This document shows, piece by piece, positions 3,242 through 25,712 of a stretch of 64,000 bases of DNA. Position 1 is the first letter of the stretch. Each line of letters opens with the position of its first letter. The position numbers and the translations under genes are program-made. The notes under the pieces were generated by a model that saw nothing but the letters and a program-made list of their open reading frames with translations, was not told the origin of the DNA and did not search any database. The DNA lies in assembly GCA_004022145.1 (NCBI GenBank), contig RCNU01000008.1, one strand, 5' to 3'. This DNA is from Paecilomyces variotii (Eukaryota).

Positions 3242-3329
3242 CCTTCTACCAGGGAGGTATCAAGAGAGATAGCTCTGTCTGGTGAAGGGTCAGATGGAAG
3301 CCGCCCGGGTGAGCCATTCTCACACCCAT
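3242..3329 (+). promoter_or_regulatory. Conserved structured leader element, copy A (upstream of GIY-YIG gene)
   Basis: ccttctaccagggaggtatcaagagagatagctctgtctggtgaagg...cccgggtgagccattctcacacccat is near-identical to the reverse complements of 16530-16619 and 22841-22931. It folds into a long hairpin plus a small hairpin over a GTGAGC donor-like site. Confidence 0.75.
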
Positions 3330-3896
3330 GATACTACTACTTTTTTTTTTGTTAGTCTTTCTATTCCTTTTTCCCCCTATGTTATTTTTGCAATTTGAGT
3401 CAGAAGAGATGTCATGCTACGTTACAATCATTCGTTCGAGTATAAGGTGAGGCTTGCCCGTACCTAACAAGTGAACATGGATCCTCTTATTTCTGGATAA
3501 CTGGCTGCACTGAATCATTCTTGGTTTACAATTTAGAGCGATACTACAATGCCTGTTGATCCGGACTTAGGTTGCTAGTGACGCATCTCCCTTTACCTGG
3601 ACCTTGAGAATCAGTGATCGAATAATTCACCGCAATGATGGAATTCCATCAAACATTTGGTAAGGCATAGCCCGACGAGCCAGTTAGAGAAATACTGAGA
3701 TTATATTATTTTTACAGAACCGATGGATAGCAGCAATATCGTCCACACGTGATGCTGCAGTTTTCTCTCCTCCTAATATGGAAGTGCCCCCACAGAGGCC
3801 GGACCCTCACTCTCTCCCCTCTTCTTCATCAAATCGACTTTCCCAGGTAGACAAGAGGTATCTCTCAATGCGACTTTCGTCTCAAACTTCATCATC

Positions 3897-5745
3897 ATGG
3901 CCGTCCAGATGCATGAAAGATTCCAGGAACGTGTTTTGCAAACTCTCAGTTCCCTCAGGAGCCTTGAAATGTCAGATGAGTGGAATATTACTCTACAAGT
4001 CTGGGACGATGAATACCTTCTCTCCTACTTCAATACATATACAGCAGAGCCTTTAAAGCACCTATTAGATACACATAGTCCTCCTACGTTTGAAGATTTG
4101 AAAACTCTCGACTGGCTGGATACTACTGATGCTGGGGTATATGCCCGTCTTATTTGGCCAACAATGGAAAAGTCCACTCCACATATCTATGTTGGATCAG
4201 CAACGTCTACAATGGGTGGATTATCGAAGAGGAAGTTAGATCATGAGTATCGTCCCATAGCACAACAGTAAGGATACTAATATATTATTTTGACTAATGA
4301 CTAACATTGACAGATGTGCATACTATAAGACATTGATGAATCAGCCCGGAGTTCCACGTACTTCCAAATTCGTTACAATATACACAATGGACTGGGGTTT
4401 ATGCTCAATTGATGATATAAATTTGAATCGAAAATTATGTTTGCTAGCAGAAGCTGTCTTTACTGCTATGCTGGGTGGATACATGCCAGTAGTAGACAAA
4501 CCTCTGCAACTGGCTTGCCCATATGGGGATCCCAAAACTGTATTCGACTGGAGGGGAACATGCACCCATTCTTCTCTCTCTGAAAGTCAGCGGCTTCTAC
4601 ACATACACAAAAAAGCGAAGAATTCCGCCAGTTCGAAACTCCCATGGTTCAAAGTGAGATCGGGAGCTCGGAGGAGGAAGGACCTTACTCCAGAAGAACT
4701 TCAAGCATGTCGAGAGAAAGACAAACTAGCCATGCGGGAATATCGAAAGAAGTTTCGACATCTACTCAAAGCAAGGAAAGCCAACCGTACCCCTCAGGAA
4801 ATAATAGAGCATAAAGAAAAAAAGAAGCTCTATCAACGTCGATACCGCAAGGAACATGCTATGGAAATTAAGGCGCGTGAAGCACTACTTCCTCCAGAGG
4901 TAAAAAAAGAACGTGCCGAAAGATCTAAACTTCGAACACAAAAGTCACGCTTGAAAAAACGCCTTGCAAACCCCAAACCTCCGCGGATCATACCTCCTCA
5001 CAGAGTTAAAAGAAACGCGGACCGGAAAAGACTGCGAGATGGTGACGTGGACTTTAAAAAGATCAGTATGCATGGAACTAGAGTCAAGCGCGCAAGAGAC
5101 GCTCTGAACAAGCTCAAAGTTGATGGTGTTGGTGGCAAGGAACTGGACGAAGCCAAGAAGAAATTCGCAATAGCATTCGTCGATCGGTACAACTTGATGG
5201 TCAACTTGGGGCGCCCTGTCAAAGAAAAGCCAAGTCAAGAGCAATTCGACCTAGCAGGACCCAGCGTGCAACCAAACAACAGCAAGTCTGCTGTTGTTTC
5301 TACAGGAGACGAAGTGGATGAATGTAGCGAAGAGGAAGACATCGATACGTCGGAGGAAGACATCGATACGTCGGAGGATGAAACTTCGGACAGCGAGGAT
5401 GAACTGGACACGGATGATGAGGAACTGTTTATCATTCCCCATGGACCCAACAAGGAAGGCAGCATACCCAAGAACGAATCCACCGTACCCCGCGATGCTC
5501 GAATTGACAATCATCTCGCCCCAGCCCCCGAAATGGTCAGTCCCTGGACGATAGCTGCCAAGACTACTGTCAAGAAGCAGGAAAAATCAAAGCCGTTCTT
5601 ACGCATGGCAAATGGTCCTGCTCTAAGCCACGAGATGACCACGCCCTGGACTATAGCGACGGACGCATTTCGCAGACAGCAGACGATCCTGGGAAGATCT
5701 CTCGTTAGGAACGAGTCTCCTTCGAGAAAACGAGTGAAACGGTAA
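3897..5745 (+). CDS. GIY-YIG family endonuclease (~600 aa); exons 3897..4267 and 4314..5745
   Basis: DAGVYARL...HIYVGSATSTMGGLSKRKLDHE matches the GIY-YIG core (GxY...YxG...R...H), with a downstream LAE that could supply the catalytic Glu. A 46-nt intron gtaagg...ctaac...cag joins the two ORFs in frame. K/R-rich helical repeats and an acidic tail follow. Start codon uncertain. Confidence 0.8.
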
Positions 5746-6779
5746 CGGTGGCAGTATGTTTGTGTCGGCTTTTTTTTTACACATGTATTTTACCGCTTTT
5801 GTACTACTTACGGCAAGGCCGGTCCAAACCTGCATATTGATATTATATCTTAATCTGAGCCAATCGAGTCCGGGAACGCACTTATATCCTAAGATCCCAG
5901 AAGGGGGAAGATGTAAAGAGCCGTCTGTATAGAACTGCTTTACTTTCTTATAGTAATGGTGTATATGAGTTGTCAACTTCGAACAAAGAAGTTTTGTGCA
6001 ACGGACAAGATGTGTCCGTCTCTCGGGAGCTCGCAGCGGGTAGGTTGTCGATTGATTAGTAGAATATAATATGTAATGCAGAATAACTGAAACTCGGTGA
6101 ATGAACATGTGTGAAGATCTAGGATGACGGAAGCAAAGATTCTGAGAAAGCATATGAAAAGGGAATGATCTCTGGATTGCTTGAAGAACTAATTGACTCC
6201 GAAATCTACCAGCTATTCATGCTCCTCGACTTTACACAAATGCCTCGGCTGTTCTGAACTGAGCTGAACACATAATTAAACTGATCCATGGTCCCTCTCC
6301 CGTCTTTAATGATTCCATGCAGGTCGATGCAGGCAGCTACCCGTTACAGCTGTTACCCTGTTTGCATAGGGGACACAGCAGCGGAACGCAGCAGGTTTGC
6401 AGCTCGCCCCTGCAGGAGACGCGGGATCTGACAACATGGAGCCAGTTCTTTGAACAGTGAAGATACAGCCGCCACTTACAGAGCAATTAACCGTAGCATT
6501 GGACATTGACGGTGACGCGAATTCCCTGCGTAATACCGAGTCAGAAGTGATTGTAAATGTGTGGTGCATTCATAAGATATTACCCCTCATTTACGGCTTT
6601 AAGAATCGCTAGTTTTTACACCAAATCTGACCTTCTCTTTCCCCAAACTTTATACTACGCTTTGAAGTTTGAGTGCATTATGACTCTTATATATATACAC
6701 CGTTCTATATACATACCAGCATCTTTATTAACTCTCTCTTTCAATACCTGAAGGTAGACAGTCAGCACTTCCTCACAGA

Positions 6780-8070
6780 CGGGTCCATTCTGGTCGAAGC
6801 CTTTGCAGTGTCATCACTATATTGGGGAGACTTAGAAGGTTATTCCCAGGGCCGGCACTTGCTATAAGCATAGGAGAGTTCGACGAGACAGTTTAGAGAA
6901 GGTAATTGCTGAGACTCTGCGAAGATAAATTACCAATGAGCATCGTTAACAAGGCCGCCGGTGAAGAAGGCAAACTATCTCTATAATGAAGATCGCGATT
7001 CAATGCATCCGGAATTGGTGACAGAACTGTTCTTCAACTTCATAAGGCCAGTGTCTGAGGATACTGAACCATCACGGATCTGGAAGAATATGTGTGGAGA
7101 AGTCATATGGCGCAACAACCGACTTCTATAGCACAGGTCTCCGTTATGGCTACTTGTTCGCGCTGGCATACGATTGGTTAGATAACGAATATCTGCGAGA
7201 ACGAGTTATCTTTATATTTATATTTCGAACATTAGCAGGCTGTCTAGTCAACGCTTTTATAAAATTTTTTGAAAGAGCCCTGAACGCTGGCTTCGAGGTA
7301 AGCAGAGAAAGCAAACGTTTCCCTTTTGATGTGCATAACTGACATATCCAAAGGATCAACCACGCATACTGTCAATTCGCCTGAATGTGACCACCGGTGA
7401 CTCTACTCTATTTAACTTGACATTAATCTTCACTTGCTGAGTTTACGCTCATTTGTACGAAGTTTCCATGGCTCTTCTAGCTCTACTGACTCGAGTTCAT
7501 TCACTTATCTATCAAGGGGAAACGCTGTCATCGTTATCGACCATTTCCTGGAAAATGTCGTCTTCCCCCTACACGCAAAGCATTTCAGAACTAAATTACA
7601 GATGTCGGGTTGGGATATCCCTCTGTACAATGACAATCAGACCTCACCGTCCAGTGATGATACTGGGAATATTGGAAACAGAAGAGGGTCCTCACATCTT
7701 GTCCTTGATATTCAATCACGTCGTGTTCCCACCAAAGCTTCCACCCAAGATAATCAACATGTCATTTCCTTCCTGTACCTGCAGAGGTACAATGAAGTCG
7801 GACACATAGTTCCTATAGACGATATTACAGAACCGAAGAGACATGAAGCTGAGCTCAGTCAATCATTAACTCTCGGACTGAACCAAATTAAGGATCACAC
7901 AGTGCAAGGTACGTATTTATTTTGCTCCCTATATTATCTATATTTAGTTCTTCTGCGCACAAGTTCTAATGCATCTTCTCTAGCTATAATGAGATTATAA
8001 ATAAAATAAGAGCGCGCCGTGGCCAACGAAGCTGAAGAAAGAGAAGTGCAACGCCCATATCTTCTTATCC
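6780..8070 (+). pseudogene. Fragmented relic of a large DUF6606/DUF3638/DUF3645-type fungal gene
   Basis: Motifs recognised across broken frames: GRLRRLFPGPAL, KKANYLYNEDRDSMHPELVTELF, EVIW..*HRSPLWLLVR (6780-7180); DHFLENVVFPLHAKHFRTKLQMSGWDIP (7540-7622); LIFNHVVFPPKLP (~7705-7745); *ERAVANEAEEREVQRP (~8007-8057). Family assignment is from memory of these motifs. Confidence 0.65.
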
Positions 8071-8149
8071 TCTATATACCACCTATTATCAAGAGAATGC
8101 AGCGCTTTAACTGTCTCACCTACTATTATATTCCCGAGTCTACCTATAG

Positions 8150-8720
8150 AATAACCCTCTATAGCTTCCTGTTAAAATTGGTATATTAATAAGAAAGAAT
8201 ATACTTTAAGCTTTTAAATATATAAGTTTAATAGATTGCTTTTAGTCTTAATAAACTAAAGTTAAAATATTGCTTAAATTTATCTAAGAACAGTATTTTT
8301 TTTATTGTTCTGGTTAAAATATCCTATATACCCTAATAAAATTTATATATCACAGTCTTCTATCTGACGCAGGCCAATATAGATAATAAATAGCCAACAG
8401 ATTTACCGAGGCGTTAGGATAGATTAAATCTAAGGCATTTCTCACAGTATTATGCTTTACGCTAAGGGGCAGATAGTATTGAATCGCTTTAATACCTCTA
8501 TTTCTGGAAATTATTTCAAAAATTTCAATAATGCGGCTTATACAGTTCCAGGGCGGGGGGTATAATAATATTAGACAAATTATACGCTCTAGTATCTAGC
8601 AAGATATCAACGCCTAATAAACAAGAAGGCCAAGGATACTCATATTATTTTAACAGATATACTTCGGCATTTTTACTATCCACATTAGACGATGTCCAAT
8701 GATAATTATAAATGATATAT
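8150..8720. other. AT-rich, TpA-rich patch typical of RIP-mutated sequence
   Basis: Runs such as cttttaaatatataagtttaatag and ataaactaaagttaaaatat; no open frames, unlike the GC-balanced flanking genes. Confidence 0.6.
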
Positions 8721-9084
8721 AAGACAGCCGGTCAGCAGCAGAAAGCTTGCGAAGAAGAAAAGAAAAAAAGGGTATTCCCCATCTCATATTCCAATACTAC
8801 ATTGTGCCTTTCTCCAGCAAGCTCACATAATGGTTTACAGGTCTCTTCTGGGCCAATGGGCCGGAAAGCCTGACGATTGCAGTTACTCACGCTCTCTATA
8901 CCAAAGGAAGATGCTCTTACATTGTAAGAGGCCATCTGCGGAGATTGATCTTGATCTTTTTTAAGACGCCGGGTCCGCTGTATAGACCTCCGAAAAGGTG
9001 ATTGTCCCCAAGGACGCAGCCTTAGCCTTTCTAGCTCTACTGATTCAAGCCTATTCATTTATCTATCGATATAAAAGGCAAACG

Positions 9085-9612
9085 GATCGTCTAATCTTTG
9101 AAGCGGCATCATAGTCGACTGTGGAGTCATCGAAGCTCGAAACTGGGACTTCTTCCTTCAAGCACACATTGCCGCCCTCTAAGGAACCGCGCGATCAGCG
9201 CACTACCACATCGTCCACGATGAGATATTCCACCCTGGAGCATTCACTATTCACGAGTGATAAGTCGACTTCTCGGAATCTCCCCTCAGTCGTTCGACTT
9301 TTCCATTTGTCTTATTATCACATCATGGGATTACCAGTTCTCAATGGATGCGGTTTGGTTTTCGTGCTTTAAATAAAACGTCCATCATTCGTACCACGAA
9401 TTTCATCGACTGTAACTAGGAGACTTTCGAGGCCAGGAGACTCGAACAAGGTTGTTCTTCCATTTCTTTCTCTTCGAAACCTTCCGACACGGCCGACGTT
9501 CTCGAGGATCTCACGCACAATATGTGCTATCTCTTCGACCGCGCTACCAAGGCCGTATATCTGCCCACCAGCATACTATACAGATCTGACCTGCGAGCGT
9601 GCCCAATGTTAT
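9085..9612 (+). pseudogene. Argonaute (PIWI domain C-terminus) pseudogene fragment
   Basis: IVDCGVIEARNWDFFLQAHIAAL*GTARSAHYHIVHDEIF (to ~9230) and ADVLEDLTHNMCYLFDRATKAV/ICPPAYYTDLTCERAQCY (9492-9612) match conserved fungal QDE-2-like PIWI motifs. One stop (CAA>TAA), one frameshift and ~260 bp of unrelated sequence lie between them. Confidence 0.9.
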
Positions 9613-10211
9613 GCCTGGGCTCCGGTCACGGAAGATGAGCTCTCATATATTGCCCTTGGTATTCAATCGCGTCGAGTTCCCACCAAACGTTCCAGGCACA
9701 TCAGACCATTTTGGGTTTGTTTGATTGCTTAATACATACAAGCAATGTGTTTAAGATGGTTAAAATCCTATCCTGCTAGCCGACTATTGATTTTTCCCTT
9801 ATATGGAAGACTCCCTCAATCATACTACCTGTTGGACACCGAACGGTAAAGTTCATAACTACTCCGATTCTCTCCTTATTCTTCGCGGAACATTAGCGTC
9901 ATATCAACGATGTTCTGAGAAAACAGTGACATCTCCATTCTGCCCGTATACTCCAGAATGTATCGCTTTGTGAGCAGTATAGTATATATGCATCCGAGTT
10001 AAAGAGAGTTCGGGGATCTTAGCAGACGAGCAGTATTATATTGTTGAGTCCGGTACATAGGGAGGAATCCGTCGAGACAATTCAAACAACTATGATCCGT
10101 TGTATTCATCTGGGATATGAGAATACCGCTGTTTTGATGTACAAATCTGTCGGCGTATGTTAAACATTCTCCTTATTTGTTGCCGTACCTCTGTTACCTC
10201 GTGAGCAACAT

Positions 10212-12023
10212 CTCTCGGAGGCACGCGAAGCTGAAGCTGAAGATGCTTAGATTCCTCTATGGGATCGAGCTCTGAAGCTCTAGCTAATCTATCTATCTGT
10301 GCGAAGCATTAAACCCGAAACGGAAGGAGGCAGGCGATACCTATCCGCCTGGCCCTACAGGCCCAAAGCACCCCCCTGGACGCCTCCTGAAGTCATAGGC
10401 AGTTCCTAATCCGGAAAATGGTCAATTATCTTGATGTTCGTTATGCTAATCCCCTGAGCCAACATGCTTAAGCTCAGATCTGTTTTAAGGTCTTATCCTG
10501 ACGGATTGAATCTGACCCAATTTAACGTCTGATCTGGACGGGTCTGGCTGTGATTTTGGCTGGTTAATGTCGTATCTTGATGGGGTGCTCGAGCGTTTCA
10601 TACGCGGAGGGGTCGTTGAATCTGATCTGGTTTGACGTCTGATTAGACGGGTCATTTATTCGTGAGGTGGTGATCGTATTTAACGTCTAGTTTGGACGGG
10701 TCGTTCGTTCAGTCGTCATCTTATTTAACGTCAGGTCAGACGGGTCGAATCTGAACCTGTTTAATGTCCGGTCAGGACGGGATGTTGAATTTGATGAGCT
10801 AGGGCGAGCCCTGCGAAGCCGTGAAAGCGATACTGATCTTTGTTGCTCGCTTATATTTGCTATTGGTTAGGTAGGTGCCATATATCGCTGTATGGCTTCT
10901 AACCTTGTGAGATCTCCTCCATCAAGCAGTAGCAGGTATCTGAACCGTAACCTGGTCTATAACAGTGTCCGCACTTCCCTATGATACAAAGCTTCCTATC
11001 GCGGAGCTCTCTGGTGTATTTGTAGGGGTCCTTCCCCTTTGGAGGACCTGCGCCATATTCTTTTGATATCTGGGACTTGTCTGGTGTTGCTTTGTTTGAT
11101 GTCGCTTCGCTAGATATCACTATTACCGCGGCGAGGTTTAGTTCACTTTTTTTTGCCTATATTAATGGCTTCACGACAGCGTTGTTGGAATTCAGACTTT
11201 GTTATAGTGGTGGACTTATCCTTTGGCCATAAGCAGTACTAAGCTATTGTCTAGTTGGGTAGTTCGTTCTCGAGTTCTTCAAAGAGGAGTATGGCGGCAC
11301 ACCACGGAGTGATGGTAAGGTTTAGCACGTTGCCAAGCGTCACGGTAGGCGATAACGAACTGTTCAATCGATCCATATTAATGTCGATGTGTTTTTACCG
11401 ATGCCTTCCAAACGGTGCGAAGTTTTATATGTCCCTCCCCCATCACGATTGTTTTTATCGCATTGATATATTCGTTGGTGTAGATCGGTTCATTAGGGAG
11501 CTGACGGAGTTCCTCTATGATCTCGAGGTCGAGCTGGGCTGTAATCTAACTTCTTATTGACAGAGACATCCTCCTCCACCTATTATACGCGTCTTGATCG
11601 GTACTGCTAGGGGTAGGTCTGGGACAGTAGAGTCAATAAGGTTCGAGCAGTCAACCGCTCGAAGGACATCCTTAACGAGGTAGAGCCAAGTGTCAAATTT
11701 GGTCTTCGTGGTGAGCTTTTGAATGCCGTCGATTTCCTCTGGCACCTTCTCTGGTAGGCCAGTTCCTGGATGAGCCAACTTCGAGGATAACTGGCGGGGT
11801 AGTAGTGCTGGTGTTCGACAGGTGGTAGGTAGGAGGGGCAGATCCTGCAGAAAGCAGGTCTGGTTCAAGAATATAGTCTCTGCGGTATCTAGAGCTGCTT
11901 TTAGTCATAAAAAAAATCATGAAAATGAAGCTATTCCGGGCGCATAACCTCTCCGAGGCACGCGAAGCAGAAGATGAAGACGCTTAGATTCCTCTATGGG
12001 ATTGAGCTCTGAAGCTCTAGCTA
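10212..12023 (-). mobile_element. Non-autonomous gag-only retroelement-like relic with 75-bp direct repeats
   Basis: Direct repeats 10212-10286 and 11949-12023 (5 mismatches in 75 bp). Internal minus-strand ORF pieces: copia-gag-like IQKLTTKTKFDTWLYLVKDVL...LIDS (11554-11868) and degenerate zinc knuckle KCGHCYRPGYGSDTC (10899-11120). No TG..CA ends or pol seen. Confidence 0.55.
10480..10785. repeat. Array of ~7 degenerate 23-24 bp repeats (TTTAACGTC-N6-7-GACGGGTC) with variable spacers
   Basis: Copies at ~10485, 10521, 10562, 10631, 10679, 10724 and 10760; the best-preserved copies contain an internal CGTC/GACG inverted pair. Confidence 0.8.
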
Positions 12024-12379
12024 GTCCTCAAAAAGTTGCCTATTAAAGGAACGTCCTGACTCTAAAGTACAGTGGCAATGATTTTGTGTATCATGTCTCG
12101 AACTATTGCAAACTTATACTTATCTTTCCCTACTCTGTTTCACATGTGTACATGGATGGAGAACTAGGATCCGAAGATACAGTTCATTCGTGGCTAACTA
12201 TCTCTGTCTGTAATATCTTAGACAGTGCTAGCTCCATACAGTCAATTTCCTCCGTTATGAACTGATCTTCTTTCCCGGCCCACAGGATCCATGTCAGTGT
12301 CGTTGATCCATCTCCAGTCTCATTCTCAGACCATCGCTCTTCTGCCTGTTTTTCGTCTTGCGTGGTGGTCCGCGTGTAG

Positions 12380-12421
12380 GTAGTCGGTAGTCGGTAGTCG
12401 GTAGTCGGTAGTCGGTAGTCG
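12380..12421. repeat. (GTAGTCG)x6 heptamer microsatellite just 3' of helicase 1
   Basis: Read directly from the sequence. Confidence 0.95.
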
Positions 12422-12477
12422 GTAGTAGGTGTACTCGGTTGTCGATCGTCCTTGTTGAGGTTACACTCATGGCCTAC

Positions 12478-15400
12478 CTACCACTTGGCGTCTGTCGCAT
12501 CATTGAACTTAGACTCCCACTTCGAGGCGTCATCCGGTTGCTGTGCTTCCTGCTCCCATGCACTATCCTGTTCCTGCAGCTGCGCGCCCTCCTGTGACTG
12601 CTCCTGCTCCTGCTCCTGCGCCTGTTCCTGCTCCTGCGCCTGCTCCTGCGCCTGTTCCTGCTCCTGCTCCTGCGACTGCTCCTGTTCCTGCGACTGATGG
12701 TGCACATACTCCGAGGTCACTGGATCTCCAGTGACCTCGTATACCGCATCTCGCTCGTATAGATGCTTCCAGTACTCAACAATCTCGATTGGCTTCTGTT
12801 CCGGCTCAGCGTCGCTATCCCTCTTTCTCTTCAGTTTCAGTGCACAGCCTGTGATGCAGCCCTTCCCAACCACGATGAGACATTCTTTCGCACGCGTAAT
12901 CGCCACATTGCAGCGATTGTTGTTCACGGTGAACCCAAGGTCCGCGATACGCTCGGCGCTAGTAACCACCCAGTCTAGGATCACGCATTCTGCTTCGTGG
13001 CCTTGCATTGAATCGACGGTCGCGACCTTGGCAATGTCGCGCCATGCAATACGTTTCTGTGTCGCGAAATTGATCAGAGCCGTCACATAACAAGAGCGCT
13101 GTTCTGAGTACGGGGTGATGATAGTTACATCACCACCCTGAGACAGTGCCTTGCTATCAAAAAGATAAGATAACAGCTCCATCACGACAGCAACGTTTTG
13201 CAGGTTGTATCGGGACTTGTTTCGAGGCTCGACCTTGTCCTCGCCATTCTTTACATCAAGGGCGATGAGATGTAGATCCGGCTCTCTGGATGGGGTGGGA
13301 CAGATTGTCCTCAACCAGTTAAGCAACCCAGTTTTCAATTCTGGGCGCATAGGATGATCCTCCAAGCCGCTCTCCGTCTTCATGAGCCCGTTGTAGGTAA
13401 AAGCGCTGGGAAATGCTGCCAGGTCGGGGTGCATGCGATGCTGGACGTTCAACATGCAAGAAGGAAATCCTGCTTGGAGAAGTCGGTCGAACAGCGACCT
13501 CCCCAGTTGTTCGCTGAACTCATTCAATCCAGGCGAGGTAAACGCGGACACAACAAGAGGCGGTAACTGGTGTCTGTCGCCTCCTCGGATCGTCCCTCGT
13601 ACCAACTGGGCCTGGTTCAGTGAAACGAGCGGTATCCAGGCATTGGGTTCCACTGCCTGTCCATCTTCGTCGGCTATGACGATGATACCTTTGCATGGAT
13701 TCGCAGGGTCTGCCGCGAAGTTCTTCCTGATCAGATCAGTGCCGGCCAGGTTGTCCGTACAGGACACGATCCATGCCTCCCTCACCACAACTTCCGAGAT
13801 TTCGTTGTACGCGCGTCGGAACTTTGCCTGTTCTTCCTTCCACGCAGCCAGTTCTCCAGTGGCGTTTTTGTCAGTGGGTCGCAGAGGAGGGTTGCAGAGA
13901 TAATTCCAGAAGTAGCTGTAGGCATCAAACTCGTCACCGGGAACGCCATCCACTTGTCGTGCTATCATGAGTTTCTCCCCCTTTGAGATGGCAGTCGTTG
14001 TGCGGCGCCTGACGTGCTCGAAGAAGGTGTACTTCGGGTCTCCCGCTATGCGTTTATGGTAGGATTCCTTGGCGTCTCGGAGCACGGCTGCAATGACAGA
14101 GTCCCTACTGGTCGGAGCATCCGGCGAAACTTCTTCGTGGTCAGGACCATCCGCCGACAGGACACCTTCCAGGCGAGCTTGACGAACTCGCACATAGTCA
14201 ATTGAGCCTTGAGTGAGACTGACCAGTCTCTGCGTAATTGCGTCTACGGACGCGTTGCTGGGACTGACGATCAGAACGTGGAGTCCGGCCAGGTGGTACA
14301 ATATCACGAGGGCCGCGAGGACCGTCGACTTTCCACAGCCAGGGAAACCTTCGACGAGACCGATCCTGGATGTGAGGTTGGCGGCCATATCGAAAACCTG
14401 CCGCTGCTGCTTATTCCAGGGCTTCAGGTGGAGTACCGCCTGGAGAGCCACCTGTACCTTCTGAGGGTCCAGGCCGTCAAAGGGGTTTGTCTTGCTGAGC
14501 AGACACGGCTCCTGGTTCAGGAAAGCCATGTGCCATGTTGGGTCTTCCCGTAAGTGTGACAGTGCGTTAATCTGTCGTCGGAGTGGCGCTTCATTCTCCT
14601 CAAACTTGAGCGATGCAGCCTGAATGAACCTGAGTCGCTGGCCAGGCACTGAGAAGATGTTCTTGTAGCGCAGTATCTGTTTTCCATAGATGGCGACATG
14701 GATCTGACCCTCACCGATCCCTGCGTGGTCCGGAACTACCAGACCGCGACAGACGATCGTGGACTCTTCACCTTCTGGCATAAAGGTGATCTCAACACGC
14801 GTGCTGTCGGCAATCATCAGGTCAGTTTGCTGGAGGGTCAAGGGGAGGAGGCCATCGTTGAGCTGCGATCGGTCGATGTAAACAACAGCGTATACAACTG
14901 AGTTATCGTAAACCACAAACGCAACCGACGCATTTGCGTTGACGACTCGCTGGAACTGCATAATACCCACACGATAGTCCAAGTCTGCACCGTAGGTGAG
15001 TTTCACGCTGGCTTCCTCAATATCATGGAAGTAGTTAGCAGCCGGAACTGCACAAAGCTGACCATTCCAACCTTCTGCGACCTGCGCTCTTGGCACTAGC
15101 TGTCCAGCCTGGCATCTGATGTTTCCCACCCTGGAGCGATAGGGAAACCATGCGCGGGTCCATGGCAAGTGCTCGGCGAATCCCTGAAGAACTTCGACGA
15201 AGTTTCCTGCGTGCTCAACCTCGTCCGGTTTGAGTGGAACCCGGACATGCACCTGCCTCCTTTCCCGTGAATGGGAGGAGGTGGCCGCGTACAGGAATTC
15301 CAAGAACGCGATCGTCAGCTCATCCATCTTATCCTTCTTCTCGTTTGTGAATTTCAGACCGGTGGAGATGCCGCCCGTCGTTATGAACTTCACGTCGATG

Positions 15401-16211
15401 TAGCAAGGGTCGCAGTATTCTCCGTTCTGGTCTCTCGAGAAGATGGGTCTGCACACGAGATCAGAGACCTCGCGCTTCTGGACATCCGGGCCTGCGTGTA
15501 AGTCGAAAACAAGTGAAGCCCTGTGAACAAGGTTCACAGGATGCCACAAGCCTCTCTGGATGTTGCGGGTGTTCCTGACGCAGATTTCGAAGACTAGCTT
15601 CGGTGCGACAGGGCCCCCAACTATCTCCATCGTCACACTTGCACCGTAGAGACTGGCTCCAGGAACAGTGGGGTACATTTGCCTGTTGTCCGCAAGGACA
15701 AACTGAACGTGTCGTTTTCTGGGCCCCAGGAATCCAGTGGACCGACGGTGCTCCAACGGCACGAGGACCCAGTCCTCCACAGACTTATTTCCAGCAGCGG
15801 GCTTGGTCCTTTCTGCCGGGAACGTACCCTGATAAAAGTTGCATTAACCCATGGTCTCTCAAATAAGCCAATCTATTGCACTTACCATCCACATATCACT
15901 GGTCATCACAGTGTCTGACGCTATATCCTACCCTATGTTAGATTTGCATAACATGATTTGAGTTGCCGACCATCCGTGAGAGCGTACCTTGCCGTTATCA
16001 GTAGAGGCACCGGTGTTAACAGGAACACCGGTATCAGCAGGTGATTCTATTTCCATTTCCGTGTTGTCCCATTCGCTTTGAATATGCTTCAAGAACATAA
16101 CATGTCAGTGTTTGCAAAATATAGAAATGACACACACAAGAGAAGGTTTCTGATGGTATAACATACCTGTTCCTGTTCCTGAGAGACATGACCATAATTA
16201 AAAGCATCCAT
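12478..16211 (-). CDS. Upf1/DNA2-NAM7-like superfamily 1B helicase (copy 1, apparently intact, ~1170 aa)
   Basis: Motifs EGFPGCGKST, VSPSNASVD, ADEDGQA, GGDRHQLPP, SLFDRL, QHRMHP, ITPYSEQ, TVDSMQGHE, RCNVAITRA. Predicted upstream exons 16211..16167, 16086..15988 and possibly 15927..15886 splice in frame to 15828..12478. C-terminal QE repeat. Confidence 0.88.
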
Positions 16212-16227
16212 TTTTGGTCTTGCTGAG

Positions 16228-16412
16228 AAGATGGGAGATGCTAGATGGGAGATGCTAGATGGGAGATGCTAGATGGGAGATGCTAGATGGGAGATGGGAG
16301 ACGGGAGATGGGAGATGGGAGATGGGAGATCGATGATGGATGATGGGTGATGGATGATGGGTGATGGGTGTAAGAAGTGAGAAGATGGAAGTGAGAAGAT
16401 GGAAGTGAGAAG
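16228..16412. repeat. Heptamer-based array (GATGGGA/GATGCTA/GAAGTGA) in the predicted leader intron of helicase 1
   Basis: Read directly; pyrimidine-rich on the sense (minus) strand, ending at the acceptor cttctcag (16223). Confidence 0.85.
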
Positions 16413-16529
16413 TGAAAAACGAGGGATTTAAGCAGGGGAAGACAGGGAGGACTGGCAGAAATAAACAAAGAAAATTTTTTGCACTGAAGTGTTTGTTGGA
16501 TTAAAAGAGTAAAGAAGTGAATTAGAAAA

Positions 16530-16619
16530 ATGGGTGTGAGAATGGCTCACCCGGGTGGCTACTCGCTGCCCCTCTTCACCAGACAGAGCTATCTCTCTTG
16601 ATACCTCCCTGATAGAAGA
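16530..16619 (-). promoter_or_regulatory. Conserved structured leader element, copy B (upstream of helicase 1)
   Basis: Reverse complement is tcttctatcagggaggtatcaagagagatagctctgtctggtgaaga...cccgggtgagccattctcacacccat. Confidence 0.75.
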
Positions 16620-18462
16620 TTGCCATGAAAGGCTAGAGCAGGTTTTACCGCTGTTTTAGTGATAGAGGCTGTTTTCTGTTATAGAAACTGTCGTATGGAG
16701 CTCTGCAGGAAAGGGGGGGTCTACATGCCTGACTGACTGCTCAAGACGAGGACACATATAGCGATGACGATTGTTTGCAGGTTGTAGTGATGGGAGATAG
16801 TGGTCCCTTCAAGACTTCAAGAAATAAGGGCATGCATTGATGTAGCGGATAAGGAGCCATGACTGCGACTGCCTAAAAGAATGGCAATACGTCGTGGCGA
16901 TCAATAGGCACTCGTTGGATGTATCGGGAGAGGTGAGTCGACGTTGGAGCTGGTCGACTTGATACCTAACTTGCAATCCATAATAAGGAGTTCGTCTTCA
17001 TAATGACTATAAACGCGCTCATTTGATGAAGATCAGACCAGGTTGTAATAGTAAAGAAAATTAGCAGCGGTAATGACCAGCACAAGAGGCTATTTAAGGT
17101 GAAAATTCGACGGAGTTCTCCGCAGGGTCCCCCCCCCCGAGAGGTTTTCGTAGTGAATTAGAGATACAATGAAAGGTGACGAACCTAGAAAGTTGTGGAA
17201 TGGTCTCAATTATACGGGGTAGTCCGATTCGCTCGAGCTTCACACCTGAGAAGCGTCTGTTTTTGGCCTTGCAGGTGTTTACGAGGTCTGGCGCGTGCTC
17301 ATAGTCTGCCCTGTCTTCGTGGAACTTCGTTCGTGGGAAGTCTCAACTGCTGGGCAGAGAAGGAGAAAAGTGGTATGTAGAAGTCTGTGTTTCTCTAATG
17401 CTAAAGGCCTCGCTACATACAGGAGGTCATGTGACATAAGCTCATGTGAAGGAGGGACGTAACGTCAACGCTTAATCCCACTTTTCGTGTACTTTTCTTA
17501 AGTAGACCTTAGCCAAAAAGTCTACACGATACAGCTAGGGAACTTCTAGTCGCCAGATTCAGTGATGAGAGATCTGGGAGCGCCCCTGCATCGTGCAATG
17601 AACTGAATACCAAATGATGATTAGGAAAGCCAATTGACTGGGGGTAAAGACCCGGCCTGACATAGCTCAAGCAGTCAATAGATTGCAACGAAAAGCAGCG
17701 AATCGCGATGACGACAAGATCACGGCAGCCAAACATCTATTTCGATGTCTAGGATAGCATACTGAATACGAGATCCTACACGGCAAATTGAAGTCTACGT
17801 CGATTCTAGTCATTAAGATAACCGGATAGGAAGTGGACGGAAGCACTTGTCATTCTATTCATGGGATTACCGATAAGCTGGTCTAGCAGGAAGCAACATG
17901 TTGTATCACCGTTTGTAATTTTGGTCGAATCCTGCGCTTGAGATTTCGTGATATTATATGTATAACTTGCATTATGATAATGCTTTCAGATAACCTCAAT
18001 CGCTATTAGACGAGGCTACTAATGTAAATACAGGATTGTATTATCGACGCTGAATTGTATATCAGAATAATTCGAAGTGATTGTTATTCAATAACTGTTC
18101 CAGTAAAGTAGAGTGGCCTTAGGATTTCCATAATGCCCATGTTGTCAATTTGATAATCGATCGTCTTGTCGCGATTTATTGAGATGAGCCTCAAACTGTA
18201 AGAACTTTCTAACAATAACTCGGGAGTACTAATTTATAGTGTGGTCGGGTCTACGTCTCGTTATTAGGAATAAACCACGAACGAGCTCACTGTTGGTTAG
18301 GATTGCATTTTATTGAACTTCAGACCTAACTAAAACGCTCGAAAGTTGCAACAGTCTGCCATACTGGTCCGTACTCCGGAGGTTTTCTCTGTTTGCACGA
18401 AGAGAGCCTAGATACCACCGACGCGCCACGCTTGCCGCCCTTTTCGTTCTTCTTCTTCTTCT

Positions 18463-18464
<2 letters not shown>

Positions 18465-18501
<37 letters not shown>
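18465..18501. repeat. Poly-T run (~37 nt; poly-A on the minus strand)
   Basis: Read directly; lies ~230 bp downstream of the helicase 2 ORF end. Confidence 0.9.
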
Positions 18502-18734
18502 CCCTCCTTCTTCACCCCATGACGGTTGTTTCAAAAGATCGATAGAGAAAACTCAGCAGCAAGTTCGCCTTGGTCTGTTCGGCCCGACCTTGATCCGCTT
18601 CAATAGATATCGGCGTCCCTCTGGTCCGCCCGTGTGTCCGCTCCAGAGATACCATCAGACGCTTCCTGAGGCTGGCCAAGATCCTGAGCTTGCTCATCTT
18701 GACGCTCAGCGTTCGCTGCTTCGTGTGTTTCGGC

Positions 18735-21700
18735 CTAGGTGTACTCGTCCGAGGTAGCCGGCTCTACATATACCGACTGAAGAGGGTAGCAAACATCCTT
18801 CTTAGCCAGGTAGCGCCAGAACTCCAGAACCTCCGGCGGCGGCTTCACATCACCCTTTTGCTTAGAATTGGCTTGCTGCTTGGAAGCATAATCACCACTC
18901 AGCATTCCCACGTTTCCCACATTGATAAGACAAGATCGCGCTCTGGTGATACCAACATTGCACCTATTGTTATCAACAGTAAACCCGAGATCGCTAGGTC
19001 TGACAGCCTGGGAAACAACCCAGTCGAAGATAACACAATCCGATTGATGCCCCTGCATTGAATCAACGGTGGCAACTTTCACCATGTGCTTCCACTGAAC
19101 TCCCTTTGTTGCAGCGAGCTCTATTAGGGCCTTGATGTACCTAGACCGCTGCTCGGCGTAAGGGGTGAGTATGGTGACTGAGTATGTAGTAAAGTCAAAC
19201 TTAGCAGCCATTAGGTGCCGGATGAAATCTACAACGACCTTACAATTGTGGCCATTGTACCTGGAGTTGCTAGCTTCTTCTATTCGATATACTCTGTTCT
19301 TAATGTTGAGAGCGATGAGCGACATGTTGTCATTAGCAAAAGCCATCTGGCAGCCCGCACGGGCGTTAATCTAACCTCGCAGGTTCTGCTCAAAGATGGG
19401 ATTGATTGTGAGATCATGCACCGATGGATCATCCTCCAACATTCCTGAGTATGTGAACTCGCATGGGAATCGGGAGATCTCGGGTCTCATCCTATGCTGC
19501 TTTCCGATAATGTAAGACGGAAAGCCGGTCCGCAGCAGACGATTATATAAAGAGCGGGTTAATTGATGAGAGAACTCATTTATACCTGGACTTTGGAAGT
19601 CTGAGACGACAAGAGGCGGAAGCTGATGGCGGTCTCCACCGCGGATTGAGGCCTTGACGAACTTTGCCTGATTGAGTGACACTATAGGAATCCACGTGTT
19701 TGGCTCAACTGCCTGGCTATCTTCGTCGCTGATGACGACGATACCTTTGGTGTCTGTACCGAAGTGCTTCCGAATTCGCGGTGAACCAGCCAGGTTGTCC
19801 GTGCAAGCGACGATGCGGGTATTCTTGACGATTTCGTTCGCGATAGCTTCATAGGCTTTGCGGAAACGTGATCGCTGTTCCTTCCATAAGTCCAACTTCT
19901 GGATTCGCTCGGAATTGCTCGGAGATTCAGGTTTTTCAGGAGGGCAATCAATCCAGTCACGGAACACGGAGTACGCTTCAATCACCTCACGTGTATCCTT
20001 CTCAGCGGACTCATCCTCGTCGTTGTGATCAGAACCGAGGGCAGGGTCCTCTTCCAATTCCTCATCTTCCTCCTGTCTGATACGTACAAGGAGCCTTTCT
20101 CCAGCAGCGAGTTGCTTCCTGGCGTGGCGGTCGACGTGAGAAAAGACTGAATACCTCAGATCGCCCTGTGCTTTCTGGTACTGGGAGTTTTTCAGAATCC
20201 CTAACAGATTGACAATCGAAGTTTTAAAGTCCTCTACCGATAGCTTATCGTCTTCATCGTCGACTTTCTTCCCAAATATGGACGTCCGTTCAATTGTTGC
20301 CTGCCGGATACAAACGTAGTCGATTTCGGGCGCCATCAACAGCAGTTCGGAAGTGAATGCGTCGACAGTAGCATTTGAGGGTGTGACGATGAGTATATGC
20401 AGTCCAGCCTTGTGGCACAGAAGGGCAAGTGCTGCAAGAACAGTGGTTTTTCCGCACCCGGGGTATCCTTCGATGAGTCCTACACCACCTCTCAGTTGCC
20501 TGATCATCTTGAACACAGCCAATTGCTGGTCAGTCCAGTTCTTCAGATGCAGAACCGCGTCGAATGCTGCCTTGACAGTGACTTCGTCAAGTTCAGCGAA
20601 AGGGTCAATGATCTCCATGCCGCTCAACTCCTGGTTCAGGAAGACAGAGGTCCAGAGGTGAGAAGCAGTATTGTGAAGGAGCTCGAGACAGTTTACCTGT
20701 CTCTTGATCGGAGCGTTATTGTCAGAGAACTCTACATTTCCAGTACACCAACGGAGTCGATCTCCAGGAGATGTGAGCAGACCCCTTGCCTTCTTGAAGA
20801 TTGATGTGCCGTGTATTGCGATATAAATATCACCCTGCTTGATTGACGCATAGTCGGGGATGACAATGCCGGCTACGGTCTTGTGGTTGAAACCTTCTTT
20901 GGGACAGAAGGTCACAGTCACTGGCGTGTTGTCGGGCACCACCACATCAGAGCCGCGCATGATCTCAGGGACAAACTTCTCATTGAGCCCTGCCTTGTCG
21001 ATCTTGACCACAGCAATGACAGACTTCCCAGAATACGAGACAAAACCGATCTTCGATTGTTTCTTCGAAAGTCGGTTCAGGTGAAGCTTTTGCACTCTGT
21101 CCTCCAGCACCGCGCCGTACGCGAGCCTAACATGACCGTCGTCAAGGTTATGGAAGAAGTCGCTTGCTGGGAACGCGACAGGGTTCCACCTCTGGAAGAC
21201 GTCCTGGCGAGATGCGAACTGTCCGTATATACATCGGATCAGATCGGACCTCGCGCAGTACGGGAAGAACGCTCGCTGTAGAGGTCGTTGGCGGCTGATG
21301 GATCGAAGGGCATCGCGCATACCCTTCAATCTGTCGCCAGCCACGTCCTCGGCGTCGACATACATGCGCACACGAAGAATCCGTGCTTCAGTAGACGTGT
21401 CATACGTGAAGCTGTTCATGTGGCGAAGAAGGTCCACCGTCTCGACATCGAACTGCTCGTTAGTGTGGCGTAGGCCACACGAAACGCCGCCGTTCGTCTT
21501 GAACTTGATGTCGATGTAGTTTGACTGCTCGGTCGTTTCTGTCCCTTCAGCGCCCGGCGCGGCAGATGTCTTGTCCTCCCACTCGAATTCGGAGACCTCG
21601 GATCGATGAGGGCCCATCATGCTCGAACGAGCAGGTGGGTGCAGATCGAACTCGAGGTATGCGGTGTGCATAAGGTTGATGGAGTGCATCAAACCTTTGC

Positions 21701-22281
21701 TTATGTCCTTGACGTTCCTGACGAAGACCTTGAATCGTATCTTCGCAGCCACAGGACGACCGACCACCGATATCCGAACGTCGCTTCCTTTGTCCTTGAT
21801 GAATGGTGTCTCTGGGATCAAGGAGCCGTCTTCTCTCACGAACTGGACAGAACGCGGCATCGGACCATCAAACAGGATGCGCTCTTCCGACTTCCTATTT
21901 CCGAGATCGCGGAGCATCTCCTCGTCCTCAGTTCCATCAAGACGCTGTAAGTTGTCAGTGGCAGATCTGTGGAGCATGTGTGTTTGGAAACTCACGGGGC
22001 CATTTTGTTCAATGACTGGATCTTGGACTAACTCTGCGGTATCCTGTTCGACGTGTAAGCACGATAGACCTATCTCGTTAACAATTTCTGCATGGGAACC
22101 TACCATTTGCATGGTTCCTGTCTCGACAGTTTCAGGTGCAGTCTCGGTCTGGGGAGCCTCAGTTTGGGGAGTCTCGCTTGGGATTTCCATATCCCATTCA
22201 GAAGTTCCAATCTGTTCGTGGTCTATTTAGTTTTGATCCATGGTGGATATGGAAAAGACTCTTGCTCACCGGATAAGCCAT
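18735..22281 (-). pseudogene. Upf1-like SF1B helicase (copy 2) interrupted by one in-frame TAG at 19373-19371
   Basis: Motifs EGYPGCGKTT, SDEDSQA, GGDRHQLPP, QHRMRP, LTPYAEQ, TVDSMQGHQ, RCNVGITRA. ORFs 19371..22190 and 18735..19346 are in the same frame; the TAG aligns with a Trp of copy 1. Predicted first exon 22281..22270 (MAYP), intron 22269..22212. Confidence 0.8.
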
Positions 22282-22325
22282 GATGTAGGATAAATTACCG
22301 GATAGTTCGCGAATGGAAAACCGGA

Positions 22326-22640
22326 GATGAAAGATGAAAGATGAAAGATGAAAGATGAGAGCAGAGAGCAGAGAGCAGAGAGCTGAGAGCAGAGAGCTGA
22401 GAGCTGAGAGCTGAGAGCTGAGAGCTGAGAGCTGAGAGCTGAGAGCTGAGAGCTGAGAGCAGGCAGATGAAAGATGAAGATGAAGATGAGAGATGGAAGA
22501 TGAGAGATGGAAGATGAGAGATGGAAGATGAGAGATGGAAGATGGAAGATGAGAGATGGAAGATGAGAGATGGAAGATGAGAGATGGAAGATGGAAGATA
22601 GAGATGAAAGATGAAGATGAGAGATGGAAGATGAAAGATG
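22326..22640. repeat. Heptamer-based array (GATGAAA, GAGAGCA/GAGAGCT, GATGAGA-GATGGAA) upstream of helicase 2
   Basis: Read directly from the sequence. Confidence 0.9.
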
Positions 22641-22840
22641 AGCGTTTCTAAGGGGAGACGACAGGGAGAGATGACAAAGAGAGACGAGAAGAGATGTAAC
22701 AAAGACGAGAAGACGCGAGGCGAAGAAGTGAGAAGTGAGGGATTTAAGCAGGGGAAGACAGGGAGGACTGGCAGAAAAAAGAGAATTCTTTGCACTGAAG
22801 TGTTTGTTGAATTGAAAGAGTGAAGAAGTGAATTAGAAAA

Positions 22841-22931
22841 ATGGGTGTGAAAATGGCTCACCCGGGTGGCTACTCCCTGCCCCTCTTCACCAGACAGAGC
22901 TATCGCCCTTGATACCTCCCTGATAGAAGAG
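22841..22931 (-). promoter_or_regulatory. Conserved structured leader element, copy C (upstream of helicase 2)
   Basis: Reverse complement is ctcttctatcagggaggtatcaagggcgatagctctgtctggtgaagag...cccgggtgagccattttcacacccat. Confidence 0.75.
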
Positions 22932-23759
22932 TGTCTTGAAAGACTGGAGCAGGTTTTGCCGCTATTGGTATCAGTGACGAAGGCTGTCTTCTCAAAGACT
23001 TCGCTATACGAACTATCGTATGTGGATTTGCGGCTGCGAGAATGACATACCTGAATAGCTGCTTGAGGCCTTTTCACGTTATGGATAGTGATCGTTGTTA
23101 AAGGCAACCGCAGTCGTTACTCCCATCTGTGGACTGTCTTGGATGAAGGTGATGGATTCTTCAGCCTTTGGGACGAGAAAATCATTGGTATCCTGTGGTT
23201 GCGAGGTCTAGGATAGGTGTCAGCTACAGCAAGAATATGGCTAATCGAGGGGGTAGCGACAGATGCCTTCTTAGATATATCTGACGAAGATCCCCTTTAG
23301 GGAACTGGGACACGAGGTTGTCAGAGGTTGAATCTTGAGAGGTGTGTCTCACCTCATAATCCAGCCAGCCCCCCCAAAAAGAGTGTAACCAGTCAAGCAC
23401 TTTCGACAATCAGGATGGTTTCAGCAGATCCGTTTGAAAACTATAAAGTTTAGAATTCAAATCATCCCATATGTGTACTCAGTGGCCACAGGTGGGGTCA
23501 GGTTGTAATGAGGCAGATGCACTGTGGTTAAAGGAGGTGGAAAGTTGAAAGAATTATGGATTCAGTGAGAGATATGCGAAGCAGGCACCGCTTCTACGGG
23601 GTTCTCCGCCCAGATTCTTTGGGAATATCCGCTTTGAGCAGTCTCGGTGAACGGCAGATCTTATTCACTCAAGTCCAATATCTGCTGGTGTCATTTCCAT
23701 TCATCAAGAAGCTTAGAGAGCATATATACGATGTTCTCTTCTACCTCTGGTGCCACTTC

Positions 23760-24341
23760 GTCTTCCAAACTGGCATGAAACTACTAATGCCGGGGTGCAG
23801 GCCCAACTCATCTGGCCTACTTTGGAAACTTCAACCCCACATATATATATATAGGATCAGCAACATCAATTATGGGTGGGCTGTCTAAGCGAAAAATTGA
23901 CCATGAAAGCCGCGAGATGGGAGCAAAGTAAGTACATTGTTTTGCCATAGAATAAGTTACTAATATGATATTTATAGATGTGCTTATGATAAGTGCTTAA
24001 TGCACCAGATTGGCATCCCACGGGACGCCAAATTCGTCACTCTATATAAAATGGATTGGGGCTTATGCTCTACGGATAATATCAACCTTAATCGCAAGCT
24101 GTGCTTGCTAGCGGAAGCTGTTTTCGCTAGTATACTTGGTGCATATATGGGAATAGTGAGTAAAGAGCTACGGATGACATGTCCGTACGGAGATCCCAAA
24201 ATAGTATTCGATTGGGCTGGGGCATGCACGCATTCATCCCTTTCAGAGTCGCAAAGACTTATAGGTAAGAATAAGCAACCAAAGGGCAGTACGCGTCAAC
24301 GCATACCAGGGAGTGACGAAAGAAAAACATCAGCAATATGA
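23760..24341 (+). pseudogene. Degraded paralog of the GIY-YIG endonuclease
   Basis: WHETTNAGVQAQLIWPTLETSTPHIYI/GSATSIMGGLSKRKIDHE, an intron at the same position (gtaagt...tag), then KFVTLYKMDWGLCSTDNINLNRKLCLLAEAVF...CPYGDPK...CTHSSLSESQRL. GVY has become GVQ, an (AT)n expansion gives a +4 frameshift, and the basic tail is missing. Confidence 0.9.
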
Positions 24342-25034
24342 TTCCATCATTGCAATCGGTCCTTGAGACGCATAAAGAACAAACAGATACTGATCCATGA
24401 GTGTTTCCTCTCATAAAGGAAAGTATTCGAAAAGAAAACGGGAGTTTTTGAAAAGCGCCTGACGCCTTGATCGTCTTGCAATATCGCATCAAGATAATTG
24501 ACCATTTTGGGCGCTCATTATAAGCAGAAGAGAATCCTGAACCTATTCTATATCCACTTGCTGCGGCAGCGCCTGCTAGATCATCTTCGCACTATACGAG
24601 CGAGCAAAAACGGCTCGTGTGGTTGGAGGAGTTGAAGGTGTGTATACCGTCCATACCTTGCCAGAAAGAACTTTCATGCTCTTGATGCGACAAAGCTGAC
24701 GAGCTCCCAGTCTGATTGCATGCAACTAAGAAATCATTGAACATGGGCTATGGTTCAGAGAAGTCGGTATTCTAGCACAGATACTAGGTATGGCAGTATC
24801 GAGAACGCTGAACGTGTACCCACCTTTGCACTGCCATTTCATGATATGTATTTAGTAGCAGCTCCTAGTATATCAGGGAAATTCAACTGCTTGACAGTAA
24901 ACCCTGCAGTTCATGATGCGAGATGTGCCAAAGTCCGGACTTGGTTCGTTTACCTTGCCTAAGTACGCGGACTTGCTCGAGCCACGAATGCCACGGGACT
25001 AAGTAGTTGCCGATACTTGACACACGGGTTACAG

Positions 25035-25316
25035 GCTACAACAGGTACAAGTCTACTCCTGACAATGCATTATTGAAAGTATCATTTTATGAAGTCTAAG
25101 CCTCTAGCTAAGTAGGTAGCTTAAAGCCTCGGAATCGTGATCGTCACATGACTCATATCTCCCCCATTCTGCCAGGTGTAACCGCTTATTTCTTGGTAGC
25201 CTTCTGAGCAGCCTTGGTGACCTTACCGGCACCACCGGCGGATTTCTCAACAGACTATAGAGAAAAATGTCAGTTTTTGAACACGAATTTGAGCGTTTGT
25301 AAAGGAAACTCACCTT
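25035..25316 (-). pseudogene. tef1: Inverted tef1 3' fragment (AAG + last intron + last exon + 3'UTR)
   Basis: Reverse complement reads AAG|gtgagt...aattcgtgttcaaaaactgac...tatag|TCT GTT GAG AAA TCC GCC GGT GGT GCC GGT AAG GTC ACC AAG GCT GCT CAG AAG GCT ACC AAG AAA TAA, with a 3'UTR alignable to 947-1110. Confidence 0.95.
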
Positions 25317-25712
25317 ATTGCAATTTATTATGTTACAGCGCCTTTTCTTTTCTTTTTGATTCTCTTTGCCGATCTGATGAAAAAGGTTTTCATCCAGCTA
25401 ATCTGACACCATACTTGAGTACTTGACCGATTGGTCGGCTCGTCTGGCCCGTGCGCGGATTCCAACATCGGGGAATCGCCGCCAGCTTAACATCACGTTC
25501 GGACGTTGTGGCATGAATTATGCTTTCCTTCATCTAATTTCGTCTAATTGGCAAGCACTGAATCACCAATTCATTCGACAATTGGGAGGAAGTTCTGCGT
25601 TCTGCTGCTGTGTAGGCTTGGGTTGTTTCGGAGCCTTCTGACGACGGACTCATTAAGGACCTTCGTGCATAGAACATGAGTCGTCTACTGACTTGGCGGC
25701 CTCTCCCCTACA

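Follow-up and report, generated by a model that had tools for sequence, protein, structure and literature searches.

The window, a stretch of 64,000 nucleotides from Paecilomyces variotii, opens inside tef1, the gene encoding EF-1alpha, and carries a second copy of the 3' end of this gene (hereafter the orphan) that lies 24 kb away and is inverted relative to tef1. The features that concern both copies and their surroundings are listed below.

3..816 (+): large penultimate exon of tef1 (EF-1alpha), truncated by the window start; its translation is EF-1alpha
817..874 (+): putative last intron of tef1, with 5' site GTACGT, branch CTAAT and 3' site CAG
875..946 (+): last exon of tef1, consisting of the AG of a Lys codon, 22 codons and TAA
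947..1122 (+): proximal tef1 3'UTR, the portion still alignable with the orphan, without homology beyond
1123..25009 (no strand assigned): block between the inverted copies, holding a pair of divergent SF1 helicase genes besides ORFs that match no Pfam family
12478-15843 and 18735-22226 (both -): SF1 (AAA_11/AAA_12) helicase genes, 39% identical to each other
25010..25185 (-): orphan 3'UTR copy, from alignment to the tef1 3'UTR
25186..25254 (-): orphan last-exon copy, peptide and stop unchanged, five silent differences
25255..25313 (-): orphan intron copy with consensus-like signals GTGAGT, CTGAC and TAG
25714-27545 (+): transcription factor gene, C2H2-like finger first, then Zn2Cys6 and Fungal_trans
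Genes right of the orphan: zinc-cluster factor, sdhC, RING protein, adaptin, MBOAT, sugar-nucleotide transporter, Med15, LMBR1 and BAG

The frame at 3-815 encodes 271 residues with 91–93% identity to named Talaromyces, Aspergillus and Penicillium EF-1alpha sequences (Eurotiales), the closest EF-1alpha representative being 93% identical and no Paecilomyces member occurring among the 10 clusters listed. The 22 codons and stop of the last exon occupy 878-946(+), and the last intron is of phase 1, splitting a Lys codon. Joining GTACGT at 817 to CAG at 874 would be the sole choice that preserves VVK (AVGVVK/SVEK), and we infer this splice because the joined peptide matches the AVGV[IV]K that directly precedes the tail at all of 70 other fungal tef1 loci. 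Two 5' splice-site motifs overlap at the exon-intron junction within window positions 813-822, GTGAGT at 813-818 and GTACGT from 817. Val codons in the large exon are GTC (23), GTT (6), GTG (3) and GTA (1), and codons 270-271 (region 807-816), directly before the splice site, are the only GTA and one of the three GTG codons. Since the rarest Val codons occur here together with the overlapping second motif GTGAGT, the tef1 junction looks remodelled.

The homologous unit measures ~300 bp and pairs ~813-1122(+) with 25010-25313(-), covering the last intron from the shared GTGAGT, the last exon and ~175 nt of 3'UTR. Homology ends sharply, near the exon-intron junction on one side and ~175 nt past the stop on the other, and local alignments beyond the unit were no better than shuffles, as 146 of 200 shuffled sequences upstream and 52 of 200 downstream attained the observed score. 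Self-comparison of positions 1-3000 with the rest of the window returned a sole pair, 824-988 against 25308-25144 (82.9% identity over 170 bp), and no second breakpoint duplication was found between 1-3000 and the remaining window. A tblastn search of the 271 residues against window positions 1001-64000 detected no other EF-1alpha piece (best E 0.86). Given the lack of homology outside the unit and the blank tblastn search, the orphan is a ~300-bp fragment that no other tef1 relic adjoins. 813-1122(+) and 25010-25313(-) form the only inverted unique pair bounding one segment, which is the arrangement of an inverted breakpoint duplication. The segment is a 24-kb block that starts at the last intron of tef1 and has the orphan at its distal end. 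The orphan intron signals set phase 0, compared with phase 1 in tef1, and thus misfit the present end of the penultimate exon. A processed pseudogene or retrocopy was rejected, as the orphan retains the last intron and lacks a run of A where homology stops near 25010.

Both exon copies, 878-946(+) and 25186-25254(-), encode one identical 22-residue peptide followed by a stop. The differences between them amount to 5 of 69 bases, all at third positions and all synonymous, with no indel, and at every one of these sites tef1 has C or G and the orphan T or A:

880 / 25252: tef1 TCC, orphan TCT
889 / 25243: tef1 AAG, orphan AAA
922 / 25210: tef1 GCC, orphan GCT
925 / 25207: tef1 GCC, orphan GCT
934 / 25198: tef1 GCC, orphan GCT

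The intron copies showed 4 mismatches in 51 aligned columns and 16 gap columns, and the 3'UTR copies 28 mismatches in 138 aligned columns and 23 gap columns, so that 32 of 189 aligned non-coding flank bases differ (about 1 in 6, ~17–20%) alongside 39 gap columns. Transversions form the majority of the flank mismatches (12 of 32 are transitions; 11 of 28 in the UTR), and in the UTR, G/C of tef1 faces A/T of the orphan at 8 sites while the reverse holds at 12, giving no GC->AT excess. On account of these mixed and unskewed mismatches the flanks look old and unbiased, whereas the exon has only silent changes of the C/T type. These comparisons agree with the preliminary description, which had listed the five third-position differences (TCC/TCT, AAG/AAA and GCC/GCT three times) with an unchanged peptide, at exon coordinates that are exact, and had held the intron and 3'UTR to be the more diverged parts. 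A 32-base block identical in orphan and tef1 (25211-25242 / 890-921) coincides with the ends of contigs from public de Bruijn assemblies at 25240, 25213 and 25249, and the duplicate probably causes short-read assemblies to break at tef1.

The mutational space of the exon comprises 207 possible single-base changes, 52 of them synonymous. The probability that five of five changes are synonymous was 0.001–0.0024 for transition:transversion weights of 1–4, 0.0038 when only transitions were allowed and 0.0083 for GC->AT transitions only. In simulations in which a neutral orphan branch was given half the flank divergence (0.085 per site), peptide and stop remained intact in 1.1–1.9% of runs, and an intact peptide with at least four changes arose in at most 0.3% of simulations at every rate and spectrum tried. 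Zero replacement against five silent differences (neutral P 0.001–0.02) is the pattern of purifying selection, as read from only five sites and from a silent-only pattern that was singled out because it looked odd. Gene conversion from tef1 fails to restore neutrality in that differences arising on the orphan after conversion would still be about three-quarters non-synonymous, and placing the four silent changes all on the tef1 branch needs more time than the flanks permit. A mutation process specific for CC to CT that hits third positions was rejected, being at odds with flanks without a C-to-T excess. In an uncertain alignment with four distant outgroup UTRs, the tef1 and orphan copies had 24 and 23 matches in 40 invariant columns, and the polarisable UTR differences were split 8 to 8 in the same uncertain alignment, which weakly suggests that neither copy is much faster-evolving.

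RIP in Neurospora has a length requirement, and the ~300-bp orphan repeat is short for it. In P. variotii RIP is active, producing only C-to-T and G-to-A changes with a preference for CpA and hitting 18–20% of bases in a 780-bp repeat, according to PMC6300479. A CpA context was present at 1 of the 5 exon changes, and with 12 transitions among 32 flank mismatches and no GC->AT excess, RIP was rejected as the cause of the exon differences. Active RIP in the genus argues against a long-lived complete second tef1. The preliminary description had reasoned that a RIP-mutated or dead copy would not stay silent-only, and this reasoning is borne out by the low neutral probability (P ~0.001–0.02) and by the absent RIP signature. 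Its larger claim, that the orphan was once a working allele, stands in part: the silent-only pattern is improbable under free decay and RIP is unfit to explain it, but the pattern comprises five sites, and a plain inversion-breakpoint duplication explains the layout without a once-working copy.

Other fungal tef1 loci were surveyed by means of tail peptide patterns. A degenerate pattern of the full tail peptide had no match in metagenome contigs or prokaryote genome contigs, nor did a shorter tail pattern in viral contigs; a looser tail pattern yielded 76 metagenome loci, 71 with the full last exon and 70 with at least 120 nt upstream. No close relative was found among the 76 loci, the best being 92.9% identical over 212 coding bases without an intron or UTR match; these loci were used solely for statistics on codons and intron position. 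EF-1alpha lay directly upstream in all 70 loci with enough sequence, six contigs beginning inside the exon and being uninformative. In each of these 70 loci, 17 of them on contigs longer than 10 kb, AVGV[IV]K runs straight into the tail with no intron at this site, and the last intron of tef1 is therefore lineage-specific. The intron predates the duplication, and a donor, if there was one, must be a close relative. GCT was found at the three differing Ala codons in 36, 10 and 36 of 71 loci, where it alternates freely with GCC, so the GCT codons of the orphan are ordinary for a working tef1. AAA at Lys codons within the tail is rare (2–7 of 71 loci), and among Ser codons in this tef1 there is 1 TCT against 14 TCC. 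At several metagenome loci, with tails that we take to resemble yeast EF-1alpha (Saccharomyces TEF1/TEF2), contigs start or end 15–16 nt from the tail pattern, and these ends are probably assembly breaks at two-copy genes. A literature search of titles and abstract openings found no report of a tef1 3'-end duplicate.

Present use of the orphan was addressed with contigs of three metatranscriptome RNA runs and one DNA run (divergent strain X11), placed on 24400-26100, with thin RNA coverage. The upstream frame in SVEK phase has a stop 28 codons before the orphan GTGAGT and no ATG after this stop, and no ATG-initiated ORF of at least 50 aa overlaps the orphan exon on either strand. No splice joint 25255/25313 was found in the three RNA runs, in which coverage there is thin or absent. 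Neither an in-phase upstream exon with a start codon nor a splice joint, as expected of a functional terminal exon, was thus seen. One 3x contig of RNA run X17 spans 25249-25474 unspliced and stops where words become common to tef1; this run had no coverage at 24400-25197, and its RNA library may contain DNA. The three RNA runs, which reach the orphan exon only through this contig, speak neither for nor against expression. An Rfam search of 24000-26000 gave one chance-level match (E 0.5) at 25523-25610, outside the orphan. The possibility raised beforehand, that the fragment is spliced into another functional transcript, consequently gained no support: the three thin RNA runs showed no joint, and an in-phase ORF was lacking.

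In strain X11 the orphan is present, and its flanks on either side agree with those of the window as far as 25490. Over 24400-25490 this strain differs from the window by 10 substitutions and 6 indels, of which 5 substitutions and 2 indels fall inside the ~300-bp unit, corresponding to 5 substitutions in 304 bp inside the unit compared with 5 in 787 bp outside. In the orphan 3'UTR the strains differ at 25097, 25130 and 25177 and by indels at 25044 and 25111. Within the exon, position 25243 is polymorphic, the orphan codon being AAA in the window strain and AAG in X11, and the remaining four exon differences are common to both strains. All 23 Lys codons in the large exon of tef1 are AAG, and since AAA is private to the window strain and avoided by tef1, it is a recent strain-level change. 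The four differences common to both strains indicate that the orphan state is older than the strain split and that the copy now drifts. As far as seen, the orphan is not used today, is part of no recognisable gene and is drifting. An 8-bp tandem duplication (tcaagtac-type) at 25412-25419 is present in the window and absent from X11 and from the strain of run X17. To the right of 25490 the X11 contig departs from the window with at least 30 unrelated bases, which do not occur in the window even when up to 3 mismatches are allowed, and this points to a structural difference in the promoter region of the transcription factor.

The zinc-cluster factor gene itself is expressed and spliced, with RNA contigs giving joints 25794/25860 and 25914/25972 (introns 25795-25859 and 25915-25971), and one RNA contig at this gene starts near 25487. 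A Pfam scan of the block covered 10 of the 12 stop-to-stop ORFs of at least 150 aa, the other 2 overlapping scanned genes on the opposite strand, and no recombinase or Starship-type captain was present in the 10 scanned. The frame of the second helicase (18735-22226) is broken between 19370 and 19371. In P. lecythidis, nine locus tags separate the LMBR1 orthologue from a helicase homologue of that contig, which is 49% identical to one window copy and 38% to the second; the LMBR1-like protein is 100% identical to one database record and 95% identical to that of P. lecythidis, with next matches at 70%, which places the organism in Paecilomyces. Because this homologue is near LMBR1 and yet only 49% identical, the block is not a recent insertion and evolves fast. 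The lowest G+C in the window (0.358) was found inside the block at 8001-9000, a stretch that may be a decayed repeat.

The contrast between a silent-only exon and diverged non-coding flanks makes selection on the peptide the most likely history, and we tentatively favour a history in which selection maintained the peptide of the orphan exon through most of the divergence, the exon being cut off from its gene only late. Past selection, like the splice sites and the rearrangement behind the layout, we infer from the sequence. The orphan exon once would have been, or would have alternated as, the tail of a working tef1, which may have belonged to a paralogue, to an allele or lineage that had diverged, or to the opposite end of an invertible block, and orphaning would have been late, yet before the two sampled strains split. 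Five silent differences out of five, an exon without an indel against 39 flank gap columns, the kept intron signals, the ordinary GCT codons and, weakly, the equal conservation of the two UTR copies all speak for past selection, towards which we lean with reserve. AAA is the only clearly non-preferred change and is polymorphic, which is what recent drift following a loss of function would produce. Against past selection, the four fixed differences are all C in tef1 and T in the orphan, which is also expected from mutational decay, TCT is rare in this tef1, and either a complete second tef1 or repeated inversions are required. Other exons or relics, as expected beside the remnant of a complete second tef1, were not found next to the orphan (tblastn best E 0.86; 146 of 200 shuffles reaching the upstream score). 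Further points against past selection are the phase 0 of the orphan, which misfits the phase-1 exon, the sharp ends of homology, and RIP in the genus (PMC6300479), which should not tolerate a long second tef1.

A somewhat less probable, though serious, alternative is that the duplicate was dead on arrival. One inversion or repair event with staggered breaks around the tef1 3' end would have copied ~300 bp in inverted orientation to the far end of an inverted 24-kb block, tef1 surviving with the full copy attached, and the exon would be silent-only by chance, to which gene conversion or uneven rates may have contributed. One event suffices here without a second tef1, nothing else is duplicated, the orphan is now unused and polymorphic, and the one inverted pair of ~300 bp (82.9% identity over 170 bp) has the layout described for Drosophila inversions in PMC1885836. 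The price is a coincidence of ~0.2–2%, which conversion does not relieve, as later orphan differences would still be about three-quarters non-synonymous, and there is no sign of slow orphan evolution in the strain comparison (5 substitutions per 304 bp inside against 5 per 787 bp outside). That the orphan is still used, as a terminal exon or terminator served by a divergent promoter shared with the zinc-cluster factor gene or as a spare tef1 end, we consider unlikely. Its consensus-like splice signals, a 3'UTR that keeps a deeply conserved TAGA..TGTAG element and the 3x X17 contig at 25249-25474 would suit such use, but this contig is unspliced and from an RNA library that may hold DNA, an in-phase stop lies 28 codons upstream with no ATG after it, the 8-bp indel at 25412 is polymorphic, and neither an overlapping ATG ORF of at least 50 aa nor an Rfam family was found. 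Equally doubtful is an origin of the two ends in different species or lineages, one replacing the other by transfer or introgression. Such an origin would account for the orthologue-like divergence (silent exon, diverged intron and UTR), and the block is unusually divergent from P. lecythidis (49% identity for the helicase, compared with 95% for the LMBR1 protein nine genes apart); however, the helicase family is fast-evolving anyway, as the window copies are 39% identical, simple replacement would not place the former end in inverted orientation at a distance of 24 kb, the ORFs scanned include neither a recombinase nor a captain, and with the intron absent in 70 of 70 other fungal tef1 loci the donor must be a close relative with the intron. 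Less likely still, the 24.5-kb block could be an invertible cassette with a tef1 tail (intron, last exon and terminator) facing inwards at each end. Exchange between the tails would flip the block and leave tef1 intact whichever way the block lies, selection would act on the two tails alternately, resulting in a silent-only orphan, and the fast-diverging helicase genes would sit inside a region of suppressed recombination.

If, as we tentatively favour, the orphan truly was the end of a working tef1, it bears witness to a rearrangement or exchange at one of the most widely used fungal barcode genes, and such a duplicate stands in a genus where RIP should forbid duplicates. Should it instead be a simple breakpoint duplicate, then an inversion left it as a commonplace side product whose substitutions happen to form an unlikely-looking pattern. 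Primers for tef1, read mapping and barcoding could also be misled by a second tef1-like 3' end. In summary, the orphan tef1 tail, though small, is a genuine anomaly.

Phages and ICEs that insert in tRNA genes carry a replacement 3' end of the target gene, and their ends are direct repeats beside an integrase gene. The present locus resembles them in that a working gene end adjoins the insert and a displaced similar end is found at its far side. A site-specific integrating element of the Starship or ICE type was nevertheless rejected, as the tef1 tails are inverted rather than direct and no recombinase was present in the 10 of 12 block ORFs scanned. RIP-mutated duplicates of P. variotii, as described in PMC6300479, belong to the same genus and match the C-to-T/G-to-A type of all five orphan exon differences, but the orphan differences are rarely at CpA and its flanks are unskewed.

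In the Drosophila melanogaster group, the breakpoints of 17 out of 29 inversions carry unique sequence duplicated in inverted orientation, with a median of 321 bp and an identity of ~88%, and in 12 inversions only one breakpoint region contributed the duplicated sequence (PMC1885836). These staggered-break inversions are alike in having a few hundred bp of unique genic sequence twice, inverted, at the ends of a segment, often from one breakpoint and with identity in the 80s per cent; those duplicates decay freely, in contrast to the silent changes only of the tef1 orphan exon, and the inversion of the block here is putative. Partial gene duplicates and gene relics offer the remaining comparison, as the orphan is likewise a fragment of a housekeeping gene without upstream exons, polymorphic and, as far as seen, unspliced. 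It differs from them in being free of replacement changes, frameshifts and stops in 23 codons despite a flank divergence of ~17–20%.
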